Assembly: GCA_963734535.1 (NCBI GenBank)
Contig: CAVTHS010000008.1
Location: 416,001 to 480,000 of the forward strand
DNA from: an uncultured Chloroflexia bacterium
Lineage (GTDB): Bacteria; Chloroflexota; Limnocylindria; Limnocylindrales; CSP1-4
Reading direction: 5' to 3'
Length of the DNA: 64,000 bases
The notes below the pieces were generated by a model. It was not told where the DNA came from. It worked only from the letters and a program-made list of their open reading frames with translations, and ran no database searches. Each line of letters starts with the position of its first letter. The first letter of the stretch is position 1. A program made the position numbers and the translations under genes. Below are positions 36,231-43,974 of this stretch, in pieces.

Positions 36231-36457
36231 ACCGTGACGTGATCCCACGCCGCCCGCCTAGCGTGATTCCACGCCTTGCATCGGCGCCGACAGGCTCGAC
36301 AGTGGTGGTGCGTCCCTGACCACCGGAACCGCAGTCGAGGTCGCGCGCCATGCATGGATCCAAAGGTCGTCGAGGGCGTTGGGTGATCGGATGGGCAGTG
36401 CTGGGCCTCCTCGCGCTGCCGGTGACGGTCTCGGCCGCACCAGCCACGAATGGGGGG
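36231..36457 (+). repeat. Cassette-head repeat copy 1 (diverged, truncated)
   Basis: Aligns by eye with 37981-38208 and 41186-41413. Confidence 0.92.
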
Positions 36458-36493
36458 TCGGCCCTGAGCGCTGCTCTCACCCGATCCCGGTGA
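36350..36493 (+). CDS. 47-aa signal-peptide ORF, truncated paralog of the crystallin/I36-like gene (remnant or peptide precursor)
   Basis: MHGSKGRRGRWVIGWAVLGLLALPVTVSAAPATNGGSALSAALTRSR*; below the ORF-track cutoff. Confidence 0.6.
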   Translation: MHGSKGRRGRWVIGWAVLGLLALPVTVSAAPATNGGSALSAALTRSR

Positions 36494-36682
36494 CAGCCGC
36501 GCTGGCTAACCGCGCGACGTCGTCAGCTCCAGTCGGACCGGTTGTCGGCGTCCCAAAGGAGGGGTCCTCAAGAGAAGGGGACAACGGCGTTCCTTAGGGG
36601 ACGGGACTCTCCACTTGCTCCGCGGCGCACGACTGCGGGCACAACTTCACGGCACCAGGTAGATCCATCGAGAGGTGTACTC

Positions 36683-37228
36683 GTGAGAATTCGACGCGCG
36701 ACGGTTCTGTCGCTCGCCATGGCCGCCGCCTTGCTGCTTCCGGCCGCGCCGGTGGCGGCCACTTCACCTGCGTCGTCGATCATGTCCGTCACGGTCAACA
36801 GCCACCAGCTGCCCGATGGTACGCGAGTAGTTCTTAGCAAGGTGTGGACGACGAGCCCGGCCAATGCGATTCCGGCTGCGATCACGCCGATGTCCGCCGG
36901 GCAGTGGCACGCCGGATGCAATATGACCGGCTGGAGCGGCACCAACCGAATCTGGACCTTCACTGTCTGGCAGGACTTCTGGTCGAATGGGTCCTACATC
37001 ACGTACTTTCCGGACCCGCAGCCGGACGGGACGGGTTGGTTGGGCTGGGTCCAGAACTCCACCCCGCCTCCAACACACTGGTGGATCTCGTATCCGTACG
37101 CGGGCACCGCCTCGGGCAGGTACTCCTTCACGTACTACACCATCTACGGCCAGCCAGGGTCCTCAACCTCGGGTTACGTTCAGATCTACGTCAACTACCC
37201 AGGCACGTGGAGTTGTCAAGGCGCTTAG
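36683..37228 (+). CDS. Secreted Trp/Tyr/Gly-rich protein (cassette 1 effector candidate)
   Basis: AGAGG RBS, signal peptide, ITPM junction, aromatic-rich domain bounded by two Cys. Confidence 0.75.
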   Translation: MRIRRATVLSLAMAAALLLPAAPVAATSPASSIMSVTVNSHQLPDGTRVVLSKVWTTSPANAIPAAITPMSAGQWHAGCNMTGWSGTNRIWTFTVWQDFWSNGSYITYFPDPQPDGTGWLGWVQNSTPPPTHWWISYPYAGTASGRYSFTYYTIYGQPGSSTSGYVQIYVNYPGTWSCQGA

Positions 37229-37442
37229 TCCCGAAAGAGGCCCGCACCGAGCCCGCGGTTGGAGATGTCGTCCGGGCGTCGAATCATCGGGCGCCTTGGA
37301 TAGTTCGTTCCGCCACTGGGGGTTCGGTTCGAAGTCCCAGATCGAGGCGATCGGATCGTAGATCCGATCGCCTCGTTGAGCCGGAGCGGAGGCGCGGATC
37401 AATCGGCGCCTCTGCTCCGGTCGATCGAAAGGACGGAAGCGA

Positions 37443-40885: not shown

Positions 40886-41185
40886 CGGCGGGCAAGTGAC
40901 CACCCGCTCGCCGTAGCTGACCCTCGTGCGCTCGCGCGAGGGCGCTTCATTGCACCGATGTCGCCTCCAACTGCCGCGGGACCCCGCACGCCCAGGGCCG
41001 CGATCGTGTTCGTCGAGTGACGGCCCATGGGCGGCTGCACGTGCCGGAACCGGAGGCGTACAAGCTTGGGTGTCCTCGACAGTCTGTAGATCGGCCGCCG
41101 GCATGCTCACTGACGCCCTCTCAACGGCGCTGCATGACCATCGGAAACGTCTCGGGATCGGCTCGACGCCCTGCAACTGGTCCCG

Positions 41186-41855
41186 ACCCTGACGTGACTC
41201 CACGCCGTCCGGCAGGCGTGATCCCACGCCTTGCATCGGCGCCGACCGGCCTGACAGTGGTGGTGCGTCCCTGACCACCTATACCGCAGTCGAGGTCGCG
41301 CCGCCATGCATGGATATCAGGGACGTCGATCCCGCTGGGTGATCGGATTCGCGGTGCTGGGCCTCCTCGCGCTGCCGATGTCGGTCTCGGCCGCGCCGGC
41401 CGCGAATGGGGTGCCGGCCGTCTACCTCGGTGGCCAGCGGATCGAGGGCCGCGCGGCAGCCAACCTCTTCTGTCACGACCGGGACTACCCCGTCATTCGC
41501 TGCTTCCGAACGGCAGCCGACCGGGCCACCAAGGAGGGCGGGCTCGCCGGGGCGCCGGATGGCGCGGTCGCCGGCAGCGTTGGTCAGCCCAACCTCCTGA
41601 GCCCGTACGTCCGCTGGTACCGCGATGCCAACTTCAGCGGTCCGAGCTTCGAAGCCTATGTCTACGAGCCGGACCTGGCCGCGATCGGCTGGGACAACCA
41701 GATCAGCTCCTTCATGCCCCTCAACGGCGGCCATCCTCTGTGGTGGACGGGGCCGAACCGGACCGGCAACAGGTGGGACTGGGGCACCGCTTCGGCGGCC
41801 ACCCTCGGCGCTGCCAACGACCAGTTCTCGAGCACGGACAAGGGCTGATCGGGGG
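41186..41855 (+). repeat. Cassette-head repeat copy 3 (~670 bp)
   Basis: Near-identical to 37981-38650. Confidence 0.95.
41306..41848 (+). CDS. Secreted beta/gamma-crystallin / peptidase inhibitor I36-like protein, copy B
   Basis: 180 aa, differs from copy A at only a few residues, mostly N-terminal. Confidence 0.8.
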   Translation: MHGYQGRRSRWVIGFAVLGLLALPMSVSAAPAANGVPAVYLGGQRIEGRAAANLFCHDRDYPVIRCFRTAADRATKEGGLAGAPDGAVAGSVGQPNLLSPYVRWYRDANFSGPSFEAYVYEPDLAAIGWDNQISSFMPLNGGHPLWWTGPNRTGNRWDWGTASAATLGAANDQFSSTDKG

Positions 41856-42091
41856 GGAGGTGAACCACCGCTGAGGAGGTGCCGCAAGCCTGATCTTCCG
41901 ACAATGATGTCCCAGTCAGATTCACCGGTCCTGAAGTGCGTACATGCGTTCGGAGCCGTGCGCGGAGGATTGTTCGCCGGTCGATGTTCTGCCGAACGGG
42001 CGACGATCGCCACTTTGTCAATCCGGAAGGGAGTCCCCCAGCAGGTCGACGAAGGCTCCTTCTGGTTGTTGTTACGAACAAGGAGTCAACA

Positions 42092-43471
42092 ATGTACAGA
42101 ACGATAGCTGCGTGGCTTCTCGTCGTCACAACCGTCGGTTCGGCGGTGACTTCACTAACGCCTTTGCGGGTGCAGGCGGGTGCACCCGACGCGCTCAGCA
42201 GCCCCGACGTGAGCCATTCAAAGACAACCGATTGCACAACCTTGACGGCTGCCGGACAACAGGATCTCGTCTGTCGCGACCTGCTGTTTCGACTCACGTT
42301 CGGCTACAACACCGACCTCGCGGTGATCAAGGCCCTGCGAGCTGATCCGGCGTCCGCGCCTTCGATCAAGACATATGGCATCGCATTGACACCCGACGAG
42401 GCCGCCGACTTCGGAGCGCGCCAGGCAGAGCAGGACATGATCGCGAACCTGCGCGAACGAGCTGCCGGCCTTGCCGGGTTCGCAGGTCTCTACGTCGACC
42501 AGGCCCATGGGGGCCAGGTCGTGCTGCTCGTGACGCCATCCGACACCGATGCGGCGGCGACGCTGTTGGCACAGGCGCAAACGCGCCTCTCAGGCCGAGT
42601 CGTCACGGCAACGCGAACGTACACAGAGCTCGAAGGCACGGCTGCCGCAATCGAAGGCCGCCGGCTTGTCATCGAGGCGGGCGGGTCCACCATCACCTAT
42701 CTCGGCATCGGCGAGGTCGAGAACCAGGTCGTCGTGGGCATCGACCCTTACTCTGAGGTCGTGGCAGCGGCTCTATGGAAGGCATTCGGAGACTCCGTCC
42801 AGACCATCGCGCGTGTGGCGCCCGAGCCTGCGACGTGCAGTCGAGACAATTGCGCCAATCCGCTGAAGGGCGGGCTGACGATCTACGACAGCGCGGGCGC
42901 GATGTGCACGTCGAACTTCGTCTACAGAGACGCGTCCAGCAACCCCTTTCTCGTGACCGCTGGCCACTGCGCATCTGGGTCGTTCCGCCACAACGGCGTC
43001 TCCATCGGGTCGACGGCGTCAGGATCCCGTCAGTGGTACGACTACTCGCCGGCGGACGCCCAGGCCATCACGATCGCCAGCGCGCAGAAGAGCAATTACG
43101 TCATGACAGATACTGGAGTACCTCCGACGCTCGATTTCGTGACCGGCCGCCGAACCAGTGACTACGTGGGAATGACGGTGTGCACACAGAGTTGGCGGGT
43201 CGGCCGCAGCTGCGGAATGATCTCCGGCATCGAGATCACGGTCTGCTACGGCGACCCGTGCTCGATCCACATCACCCATATGCGCCAGGCGACGTTCGAA
43301 GCGTACGCTGGCGATAGTGGAGGGCCTGTGTTCGACTATTGGGCGCTGGGGCTGGAAGCGACTGGAATCATGTCCGGCGCCACCTCTGACGCGCACATCA
43401 ACTACTACAGTCCGATCTGGTACGTCACCGGCGGGCGGACGCCATGTCTCAACAGCTCATGCTCGAGCTAG
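42092..43471 (+). CDS. Secreted S1 serine protease with pro-domain (alpha-lytic/streptogrisin-like; cassette 3 effector candidate)
   Basis: AAGGAG RBS, signal peptide, CTSNF, VTAGHC, ADAQ, GDSGGP. Confidence 0.9.
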   Translation: MYRTIAAWLLVVTTVGSAVTSLTPLRVQAGAPDALSSPDVSHSKTTDCTTLTAAGQQDLVCRDLLFRLTFGYNTDLAVIKALRADPASAPSIKTYGIALTPDEAADFGARQAEQDMIANLRERAAGLAGFAGLYVDQAHGGQVVLLVTPSDTDAAATLLAQAQTRLSGRVVTATRTYTELEGTAAAIEGRRLVIEAGGSTITYLGIGEVENQVVVGIDPYSEVVAAALWKAFGDSVQTIARVAPEPATCSRDNCANPLKGGLTIYDSAGAMCTSNFVYRDASSNPFLVTAGHCASGSFRHNGVSIGSTASGSRQWYDYSPADAQAITIASAQKSNYVMTDTGVPPTLDFVTGRRTSDYVGMTVCTQSWRVGRSCGMISGIEITVCYGDPCSIHITHMRQATFEAYAGDSGGPVFDYWALGLEATGIMSGATSDAHINYYSPIWYVTGGRTPCLNSSCSS

Positions 43472-43974
43472 ACGCCCGCCTGCCGGGCGCGGCGCCTCTT
43501 GCAACGGCCGCGTCGACGACGACCGGCCAGGCCTGTCGTGTCCCGTCTCTCGTCCTGCTCGTTGCGTCCATATTGGCCTCTGCAACTGCTTGCGTTGACC
43601 GGGGACCGAGCCCATCGCCCTCCCCCTCCGGATGGCCGACTAGGACGCCCTTCCCACTGCCATCCGGTGCGGTCGATGTCCCCATCCCTACTGCTTCGCC
43701 CGCGACATCCGAGCCCGCGGTCTGGGCCTGCGCAGCGTCCATCCTCGCGCCCGTGACCGTGGAATGGAACGCCGCGAGTCACGTCCTCAGTTTCGGTGGC
43801 CGCAGCCTTATTTGGCCACGGGGCTTCTCAGCACGGGAGTACAACGGCCGCCTCGAGATCGTGGAGCCGGACGGCAGCGTGATCGGCCGAGCTGGCGACC
43901 TGCTCAGCGAACTCGGCGGCGACGATGGCGGGATTTGCTCGGTGAATCTCAAGGTCTACGGGCCCGCCCAGTAG
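43444..43974 (+). CDS. Small lipoprotein (cassette 3 partner); start uncertain
   Basis: Hydrophobic stretch ending SATA-C, Pro/Ser linker, LIWPRGFSAR domain with two further Cys. Confidence 0.65.
   Translation: MSQQLMLELDARLPGAAPLATAASTTTGQACRVPSLVLLVASILASATACVDRGPSPSPSPSGWPTRTPFPLPSGAVDVPIPTASPATSEPAVWACAASILAPVTVEWNAASHVLSFGGRSLIWPRGFSAREYNGRLEIVEPDGSVIGRAGDLLSELGGDDGGICSVNLKVYGPAQ

Follow-up and report, generated by a model that had tools for sequence, protein, structure and literature searches.

Variable arrays of bacteriocin and immunity genes under two-component control are described in the accessible parts of three published sources (10.1101/2022.05.27.493805, PMC3171984, PMC6422914). 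Here we describe a locus that invites comparison with them. It lies in a 64,000-nt stretch of DNA (contig CAVTHS010000008.1 of assembly GCA_963734535.1, positions 416,001 to 480,000, forward strand; hereafter the window, in whose positions all coordinates are given) from the metagenome-assembled genome (MAG) of an uncultured Chloroflexota bacterium (3.2 Mb, 89.9% completeness, 7.1% contamination), and it consists of an array at 36228-43974 with a two-component system upstream. In this array a promoter block with two palindromic sites stands three times in front of different operons, each encoding a secreted payload followed by a membrane-associated or lipoprotein partner. We consider it moderately probable that the whole forms a local, self-contained regulon within a variable locus, built by copying of the promoter ahead of such payload and partner operons.

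Several other arrangements serve as points of reference. Shared promoters and the layout of the pln locus are well-known features of the blp system of Streptococcus pneumoniae and the pln system of Lactobacillus plantarum, which employ a LytTR regulator, a peptide pheromone and an ATP-binding cassette (ABC) exporter. In Rhs and CDI systems a conserved segment within the toxin open reading frame (ORF) supplies delivery, and the orphans usually lack promoters. Lysostaphin is an M23 peptidase whose immunity genes, lif/epr, alter the cell wall, and it has no repeated promoter array; SMPI inhibits metalloproteases. The hbpS gene lies divergent to its two-component genes. As far as the accessible parts of PMC4991794 and PMC3754957 describe it, HbpS-SenS-SenR of Streptomyces comprises a secreted protein encoded beside, and acting with, a kinase and a regulator.

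The promoter block, the two-component system and the head protein

Repeat finding returned three copies of a 119-nt stretch at 36228, 37978 and 41183 (87-88% identical), a further three-copy stretch at 36346, 38097 and 41302 (118 nt, 84%) and a two-copy family of greater length at 37981 and 41186; the triple repeat far exceeds chance. By alignment and whole-genome DNA search, units 2 and 3 are 98% identical across 670 nt, including the whole gene of a 180-aa secreted protein that we call the head, and unit 1 matches the 670-nt unit at 85% identity over 234 nt only. No other copy of the 670-nt unit occurs in the 3.2-Mb genome, the sole extra match being 59 nt long (78%, E 8e-5), and a 123-nt promoter query (blastn-short, whole genome) found three places, all of them in the array. 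An earlier note on this DNA had proposed three units that share a promoter and a secreted gene, shortened in unit 1, and these three lines of evidence bear it out.

Every promoter copy in the window holds two 14-nt repeats at 24-nt spacing:

36228-36349, + strand: promoter/operator copy 1, sites 36238-36251 and 36262-36275, then TTGCAT
37978-38100, + strand: promoter/operator copy 2, sites 37988-38001 and 38012-38025
41183-41305, + strand: promoter/operator copy 3, sites 41193-41206 and 41217-41230

The operator sequence is GGCGTGATYCCACGCC; with their flanks the sites form palindromes (GGCGTG-4-CACGCC) that end just before the TTGCAT box. All four exact operator sites in the genome, and its only 24-nt-spaced pairs, fall within these three units. 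A genome-wide motif search that allowed up to 2 mismatches gave 108 sites as compared to 88-107 in five shuffles, so that a wider regulon with this motif is unsupported, there being no enrichment of sites outside the locus. In distant loci, with heads 40-64% identical, the flanking DNA has diverged and the 24-nt-spaced pair is retained. A promoter and terminator scan gave no sigma-70-like site and one terminator-like site (minus strand), with no excess over shuffles, and folding of RNA from the intergenic and leader regions gave z-scores of -1.0 to +1.8, from which no structure is claimed.

Immediately upstream lie the genes of a two-component system, sharing with unit 1 a divergent control region of about 190 nt that contains promoter copy 1:

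34095-34733, - strand: response regulator with a receiver and a LuxR/GerE helix-turn-helix (HTH) of NarL type; Pfam Response_reg 69.7 bits, GerE 35.7 bits
34721-36154, - strand: sensor histidine kinase, 477 aa; Pfam HATPase_c 43.7 bits; start inferred from the related locus L015

All three scores exceed the Pfam cut-offs, as is expected of a NarL/LuxR-type two-component system. The kinase ORF as listed, which extends to 36355, is too long because it runs into the repeat, and comparison with L015 puts the start near 36154. The protein has a short extracytoplasmic loop and several transmembrane (TM) segments besides its HATPase_c domain; no HisKA_3 dimerisation domain came up at E up to 0.01, and in NCBIfam it resembles the NarQ, NarX, UhpB and LiaS types, all far under the equivalog cut-offs. 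A reading of the loop as PDZ (PDZ_6 match, E 0.12) is not significant and is kept as a lead only.

We compared the locus with 6 genome loci and 12 metagenome loci, plus four longer stretches, which are labelled below with L or G where they have to be told apart. The head-bearing relatives are Chloroflexota / Candidatus Limnocylindrales. Outside the window there are 23 copies of the head, 19 of them with sufficient upstream sequence, and a homologous kinase adjoins the head divergently within 0.4 kb in 14 of the 19 and within 2 kb in 16. The exceptions are L012b (a second array unit), L014 (beside an OmpR-type system) and L018 (behind an IS256-family transposase). Regulator homologues likewise adjoin heads in related loci. 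Where operator and regulator can both be read (8 loci), five have GTGA-type sites together with the HTH sequence 'GTRGVESSL' and three have GGGA-type sites with 'TEKSVESHL', as read in the regulator's DNA-reading helix; at the sequence level, such co-variation is what direct recognition predicts. We also note that at L014 (7637-10459) a head homologue (46%) lies divergent from the OmpR-type regulator and kinase, with a GTGA-type site kept upstream.

The constant element of all these loci is a promoter of about 120 nt with its two palindromic sites. When promoter copies from 13 places and from other loci are aligned, the duplicated blocks end at differing points:

L016b/L017b: block ends after 3 head codons
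L019c: block ends after 9 head codons
Window unit 1: block ends after about 36-39 head codons
G159: block ends after about 43 head codons
Window units 2 and 3: block spans the whole head
L010b and L012b: block holds the head and reaches into the kinase gene on the other side, by 272 codons (L010b) or about 20 codons (L012b)

Operator, promoter and leader are the only part common to all copies. Some relatives have copies with no more than 3 or 9 codons of the head; it is hence the operator-promoter, not the head protein, that stays constant, and the idea of the earlier note that a head of about 670 bp serves as a constant handle needs correcting. What the head chiefly is, is a conserved neighbour of the NarL-type two-component system, which that head-centred account had omitted. 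In L010 two copies comprising head, promoter and the 5' part of the kinase gene are present (9636-10444 and 16921-17729), the second kinase ending at about 272 codons; the 260 nt upstream of both heads and the first 12 nt of each head are identical, as are their tblastn figures.

The window has one truncated and two complete head genes:

36350-36493, + strand: head stub, 47 codons, signal peptide and short tail; resembles the head up to about 36463
38101-38643, + strand: head 2, secreted, 180 aa; N-terminal two-Cys region, then crystallin-like domain
41306-41848, + strand: head 3; protein 96% identical to head 2

L015 is homologous to the window up to 36461 and then continues into a full head gene. 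The head has a signal peptide, a conserved two-Cys stretch (CHDRDYPVIRCF) and a C-terminal domain of about 75 residues (about 104-180) that aligns end to end with bacterial single-domain beta/gamma-crystallins, if marginally so in a PDB profile search (E 0.026). Its first half contains YRDANFSG (YxxxxFxG) and DNQISS and its second half N(N/D)QFSS, all of which hardly vary among 26 sequences; of the two Y/F signatures the second is degenerate. In the accessible part of PMC3551895, N/D-N/D-X-X-S/T-S is the canonical calcium-site motif and Y/FxxxxY/FxG the Greek-key signature. The score against Pfam I36 (PF03995) is 15.6 bits, below the cut-off of 21.1 (E 0.015), and its nearest Atlas clusters (score 0.95) have I36 in 11-20% of their members. 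The label crystallin/I36-like given in the earlier note fits the C-terminal domain, if weakly, the I36 half falling under its cut-off. The AlphaFold2 (AF2) model of the head was too poor for a fold search (predicted local distance difference test, pLDDT, 55). The family is small, with 43 members among 5.8 billion proteins, all without names, and sporadic: it was found in 1 of 24 other genomes of the genus searched, and in 2 of 41 genomes overall, the source genome counted. By analogy the head could be a calcium-binding output protein, a co-sensor of the kinase as in HbpS-SenS-SenR, or a protease inhibitor.

Units 2 and 3 differ at about 14 positions within 37985-38650, concentrated in the promoter and the signal peptide, and the two head genes have 8 coding differences, all amino-acid-changing, 6 of them in the signal peptide. 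The segments 38101-38210 and 41306-41415 hold most of the differences between the heads, and the mature-coding part is 99.5% identical (2 differences in about 434 nt, 38210-38643). This pattern may reflect gene conversion at the 3' end or relaxed constraint on the leader.

Payload operons and their partners

Unit 2 provides a concrete pairing of payload and partner:

38703-39641, + strand: secreted pre-pro cysteine peptidase, C39_2-like (papain-fold), with invariant Q127, C133, H253 and D271
39638-40885, + strand: beta-propeller lipoprotein (lipobox VASC); its GTG start overlaps the peptidase stop (GTGA, 4 nt)

On its own the window peptidase scores 15.6 bits against PF13529, under the cut-off of 24, and 12 of the 15 related proteins returned carry that domain; Q127, C133, H253 and D271 are invariant across 13 sequences, as in Peptidase_C39_2. 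Beyond the source genome, 4 of 300 genomes of the class have this gene. For the lipoprotein, AF2 gives an all-beta model with a pLDDT of 84.9, and its Foldseek matches in the PDB are propellers. The lipobox pattern is [LVI][ASTVI][GAS]C at the end of the signal peptide, and the LVASC of this protein fits it. The propeller family, too, is small (31 representatives among 1.84 billion), and the peptidase-lipoprotein pair recurs in two other genomes, G159 and G042.

Complex prediction gave the peptidase with its propeller neighbour a median score of 0.74 over 3 runs, as compared to 0.00 for the best of 3 controls. Of 80 solved complexes, 58 attain the mark set for this score, as do 2 of 110 mismatched pairs; these counts hold only roughly here because custom alignments were used. 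Agreement in contacts between the runs was at least 63%, and the pLDDT of the partner at least 81. A PDB profile search with the C39-like alignment gave no match at E up to 1, which makes it unlikely that the pass reflects a solved relative already known to the predictor. The peptidase residues placed confidently in the interface (119-131, 237-250, 268 and 278-305) flank Cys133, His253 and Asp271, so that in the model the propeller would cover the active-site cleft, and it is from this position that the partner may be read as inhibiting the enzyme or protecting the producer. The G159 peptidase is a pseudogene, 5'-truncated, frameshifted and interrupted by a stop, next to an intact lipoprotein with a ratio of non-synonymous to synonymous substitution rates (dN/dS) of 0.36 relative to the window copy; that of G042 carries a single frameshift, beside a likewise intact lipoprotein.

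Unit 3 pairs a peptidase of another class with a smaller protein:

42092-43471, + strand: secreted pre-pro S1 serine protease, alpha-lytic/streptogrisin-like; ATG start with an AAGGAG ribosome-binding site (RBS)
43444-43974, + strand: small protein, secreted or lipid-anchored; begins at 43444 or 43459 and overlaps the S1 gene at its end

The protease scores 27 bits against Pfam Trypsin (cut-off 20.6), with TAGHC and GDSGGP readable as in the S1 family, and its nearest solved chains are 2sfa and 2oua; a match to the alpha-lytic prodomain reaches 18.1 bits, under the cut-off of 23.4. The lipobox of the small partner is atypical (SATAC, a misfit at -3), and homologues show LTGC, LSGC or LAGC. Of 301 genomes of the class, 56 encode its domain family (54 of 299 when two unpublished genomes are set aside); many have several copies, and the domain is also found inside frames of 460-800 aa, as a widespread unnamed domain. 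Since it is common in the class and mostly stands without a protease, it may have a general function. The pairing with an S1 protease does recur in L041/L042, two genomes of another family of the class. In G014 (L037 6536-7300, - strand), downstream of a head, a single frame holds the C-terminal half of an S1 protease, GDSGGP included, fused to a small-lipoprotein homologue; it looks like the deletion remnant of an S1-partner pair.

Unit 1 holds the following two genes:

36683-37228, + strand: pay1, 181-aa secreted protein of no family; GTG start with an RBS
37443-37739, + strand: 98-aa protein with an N-terminal TM segment and a SHOCT-like motif; starts 215 nt past pay1

Pfam returned no family for pay1 and the Atlas only unnamed clusters; a homologue (36% identity) stands behind the head in L015. 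An NCBIfam match of pay1 to 'protease inhibitor' (E 0.028) was rejected, as it lies in the signal-peptide region. The SHOCT-like match of the second gene (PF09851) has 21.4 bits, as compared to a cut-off of 27 (E 2e-4).

The calls that the earlier note had made for the individual genes fared unequally. Those of an S1 serine protease, a C39-like cysteine peptidase and a propeller lipoprotein are supported by the Trypsin score, by PF13529 in relatives with the invariant catalytic residues, and by the AF2 model, Foldseek matches and VASC lipobox, respectively. The SHOCT label is tentative, its score lying below the Pfam cut-off, and 'small lipoprotein' fits the homologues better than the window protein with its own ATAC. 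As dedicated partners, neither is upheld: the SHOCT gene is absent behind the pay1 homologue in L015, and the family of the small lipoprotein is widespread. Of the proposed pairs, the one modelled, between the C39-like peptidase and the propeller, passes complex prediction and recurs. From RBS and homologues we place the gene starts at 36683 (pay1), 38703 (C39-like), 39638 (lipoprotein) and 42092 (S1).

The content of the units also varies between genomes, as the earlier note had anticipated. By clustering of 327 ORFs and manual reading, about a dozen gene families unrelated by BLASTP stand first behind the promoter in relatives, most with signal peptides, and the promoter precedes them together with 3, 9 or about 40 head codons or with the whole head gene. 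Among them are a remote C39-like protein (hhalign 75%, E 2.6e-5) with an unrelated lipoprotein behind it, an Amidase_6-like protein, an I36-like protein (L012, 23 bits, which passes Pfam) and a 264-aa secreted protein behind heads in two genomes; most payloads and partners of related loci returned no match in Pfam and NCBIfam. Profile comparison of the propeller with the lipoprotein of L010 gave no relation (hhalign probability 3.9%).

Two species of one genus differ in this respect. In G159, the second species, the order is head, 264-aa gene, promoter copy, degenerate stub, two small membrane proteins, decayed C39-like gene and intact propeller lipoprotein; the upstream flank of the promoter copy matches the flank of window unit 3, joined here to the payload of unit 2. 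Unit 3 itself is missing, with about 150 nt from the lipoprotein to the right flank as compared to 3.1 kb in the window. Transposases lie within related loci, of the IS256/Mutator family in L018 (1-1140, - strand), directly upstream of a promoter-head unit, and of DDE_3 type in L019 (5104-6165, - strand), between two units; such loci are plastic. In a contig of public run X3, 40197 is linked to 41030 by 13 other letters, so that 40198-41029 is skipped; this reads as a population variant in which the lipoprotein gene has lost its 3' part and the spacer ahead of unit 3 is gone.

As for composition, the payload genes (36500-43500) have a G+C of 0.63-0.65, as compared to a window mean of 0.71, and in the S1 gene and its partner third-position G+C is 0.75-0.76 as compared to 0.83-0.86, the lower value being in keeping with a later arrival of unit 3. 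To the left, at 33008-33673 (- strand), a 221-aa ORF contains a Phd/YefM antitoxin domain (E 1.9e-8, residues 131-180) and, earlier in the protein, a similar second stretch. To the right are a GNAT acetyltransferase (44785-45339, + strand) and a glyoxalase/VOC-type protein (45361-46113, - strand); the listed 534-aa ORF (44509-46113, - strand) is probably too long, as it overlaps the GNAT gene.

Possible functions of the locus

The way in which we picture such a local regulon working is as follows. The NarL/LuxR-type two-component system is transcribed divergently from the paired-site promoter, and its phosphorylated regulator would bind the paired palindromes as dimers and switch the promoter on. 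The usual first gene would yield the Sec-secreted, single-domain crystallin-type head with its two calcium-site motifs. The promoter block would have been copied repeatedly, carrying varying lengths of head or kinase 5' sequence along, and would now front three operons: pay1 with a small membrane protein, the C39-like peptidase with the propeller lipoprotein, and the S1 protease with the small lipoprotein. At the producer surface each lipoprotein probably binds its own peptidase, that of the C39-like enzyme as a predicted inhibitor or self-protection factor, and recombination between repeated blocks may add, remove and reshuffle units among related genomes. From the arrangement we infer regulator binding, induction and inhibition, and an ecological purpose in either competition or regulated proteolysis.

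A number of points weigh against this picture. Public short Logan contigs from four runs span no 670-nt repeat or unit junction, so that the joins of the array are neither confirmed nor refuted by them; the best-matching run shares 27% of sampled words with the stretch, no RNA run is listed among those that match, and uncovered parts were given no weight. The source MAG carries the contamination given above (7.1%). The co-variation of operator and regulator involves two clades only and is possibly a single event, and several of the metagenome loci are near-identical populations, so the locus counts are not independent. For the head, the AF2 model is poor (pLDDT 55 with 26 sequences) and the family assignments are marginal. 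Gaps of 215 nt after pay1 and of 243 nt between head 3 and the S1 gene leave room for separate promoters of the SHOCT-like gene and the S1 gene, respectively. The pairing of pay1 with SHOCT is not conserved, the sole pay1 homologue found (L015) having no SHOCT gene behind it, and 9 of 11 inspected loci of the small-partner family are without an adjacent protease. The frameshift in G042 could be a sequencing error. Lastly, a predicted contact is silent on inhibition, and the C39-like/propeller pair is the only one modelled.

The first of the alternatives is the one put forward in the earlier note, a polymorphic antagonism arsenal in which the peptidases harm competitors, the surface proteins are cognate immunity factors and the head repeat is an exchange handle. 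We regard it as possible, if doubtful. The payloads are variable and patchy (C39-like gene in 4 of 300 class genomes, head in 1 of 24 genomes of the genus), they belong to enzyme classes with bacteriolytic members (S1 alpha-lytic-like, papain-fold, Amidase_6), and units have been reshuffled in G159. A partner predicted to bind next to the active site would suit immunity, as would an intact partner by a decayed peptidase in G159 and perhaps G042, since an intact partner with a decayed effector is the pattern expected of orphan immunity genes. On the other hand, toxicity, target and delivery are putative, Sec export and a prodomain are just as usual for nutritional exoproteases, and the prediction of binding covers one pair. 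The SHOCT partner lacks conservation, the small lipoprotein comes from a generic family, and the constant element is the promoter and not the head.

Alternatively, the locus might be a regulon of nutritional exoproteases, in which the system senses the supply of protein or peptide, the enzymes are tethered, matured or restrained by the lipoproteins, and the head serves as a matrix protein or stabiliser that binds calcium. The pre-pro form and Sec signals of the proteases and the calcium-site motifs of the head are compatible with this, and the predicted contact between lipoprotein and peptidase fits tethering as well as it fits inhibition. PDZ domains bind peptide C-termini, and a weak PDZ-like loop in the kinase would be in keeping with peptide sensing, were the match (E 0.12) significant. 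A tether, however, is hard to square with a lipoprotein that is kept while its peptidase decays, and extreme patchiness within the genus, together with about a dozen unrelated payloads, would be unusual for a core function; we rate this explanation as rather unlikely.

Two narrower explanations remain. WalRK, CssRS-HtrA and MprAB-PepD are examples of arrangements comparable to an envelope-stress or wall-remodelling module, in which the cell's own autolysins would be checked by lipoprotein inhibitors under a dedicated two-component system. The two-component system here does directly adjoin secreted peptidases and their putative inhibitors, and its kinase resembles LiaS-type envelope sensors, albeit far under the NCBIfam cut-off; with the module missing from most relatives searched (head in 2 of 41, the source genome included) and payloads differing between close relatives, which is unexpected for a core growth function, we think this distinctly improbable. 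That the 670-nt block is a mis-join or a functionless recent copy seems very unlikely indeed: contamination of the MAG, short public contigs that bridge no repeat and near-identical mature-coding parts of units 2 and 3 (2 differences in about 434 nt) might suggest it, but multi-copy heads or promoters are present in the independent assemblies L010, L012, L016/L017, L019 and G159, the copies differ at about 14 positions and have unique flanks and intact downstream operons, and the contig is long (for a protein encoded on it, the longest contig is given as 553,154 nt).

The promoter-copied local regulon is the best supported of these readings. Its purpose may be competition, regulated feeding or wall remodelling; an intact partner next to a decayed peptidase, the patchy distribution and the enzyme classes speak for competition, the generic nature of the small lipoprotein family against it. 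To our knowledge, Chloroflexota of the class Limnocylindria are abundant in soils and freshwaters and uncultured, and we know of nothing about how they compete or feed. As a speculation of rather low probability, Limnocylindria-like Chloroflexota of soil and freshwater might possess an undescribed Sec-dependent competition system, in which a NarL-type two-component system with a conserved, secreted, calcium-binding crystallin-like co-sensor or signal might switch on promoter-tagged cassettes, each cassette might comprise a secreted peptidase and a lipoprotein neutralising it at the producer surface, and the promoter block might act as a portable element that captures cassettes and mediates exchange between strains.

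Comparison with known systems

Like blp and pln, the locus has a dedicated two-component system beside operons with a repeated operator, and a variable array of putative secreted effectors with adjacent membrane-associated, putatively protective genes. Its regulator, however, has a LuxR/GerE HTH where theirs is LytTR, its products are Sec-secreted proteins and enzymes of 180-460 aa rather than small peptides, its partners are lipoproteins, and what has been duplicated is a whole promoter block (85-98% identical, with the leader gene) rather than a short operator motif. The genes identified in 34095-43974, a region whose short ORFs were not systematically scanned against a family library, include none for a pheromone or an ABC exporter. 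With orphan toxin-immunity arrays of the Rhs and CDI type it shares a conserved 5' segment followed by unrelated effector-partner pairs, a segment that permits swapping of payloads; here that segment consists of a promoter, which a separate secreted gene may or may not accompany, and export is by Sec. No delivery domain was found, nor any secretion-system gene among the genes identified in 34095-43974, only Sec-type signal peptides. The locus is accordingly set apart from blp/pln and from delivery-domain polymorphic toxins, lacking what defines membership in either.

The divergent adjacency of head and kinase recalls HbpS-SenS-SenR; the head is crystallin-like, not haem-binding, the promoter has here been amplified onto extra operons, and contact of head and kinase is only putative. 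The head domain resembles microbial beta/gamma-crystallins in aligning over its full length with 3hz2, 2k1w and clostrillin. It differs from crystallins and from I36 (SMPI) in the marginal E-values (0.026 and 0.015) and in a two-Cys region (CHDRDYPVIRCF) without counterpart, and any role as an inhibitor is putative. Bacteriolysins (class III bacteriocins, lysostaphin with lif/epr) offer a further likeness, in that a Sec-secreted pre-pro peptidase is encoded next to a gene for self-protection, although the peptidases here are C39_2-like and S1 as compared to M23, and protection would come from a binding lipoprotein rather than from alteration of the wall. In open-access papers we found no such enzyme-based bacteriocin-like system in the phylum.

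The locus offers a candidate operator with its cognate regulator that can be tested in vitro, as well as a concrete pair of peptidase and lipoprotein with a predicted interface near the active site. A promoter block copied before new genes, with differing breakpoints, is also a clear example of the growth of a regulon by promoter capture. By analogy, the nearest known layout is that of a two-component-regulated bacteriocin-immunity locus, here built of different parts, and if the partners are immunity factors this would be a Sec-only, enzyme-based analogue of bacteriocin loci.

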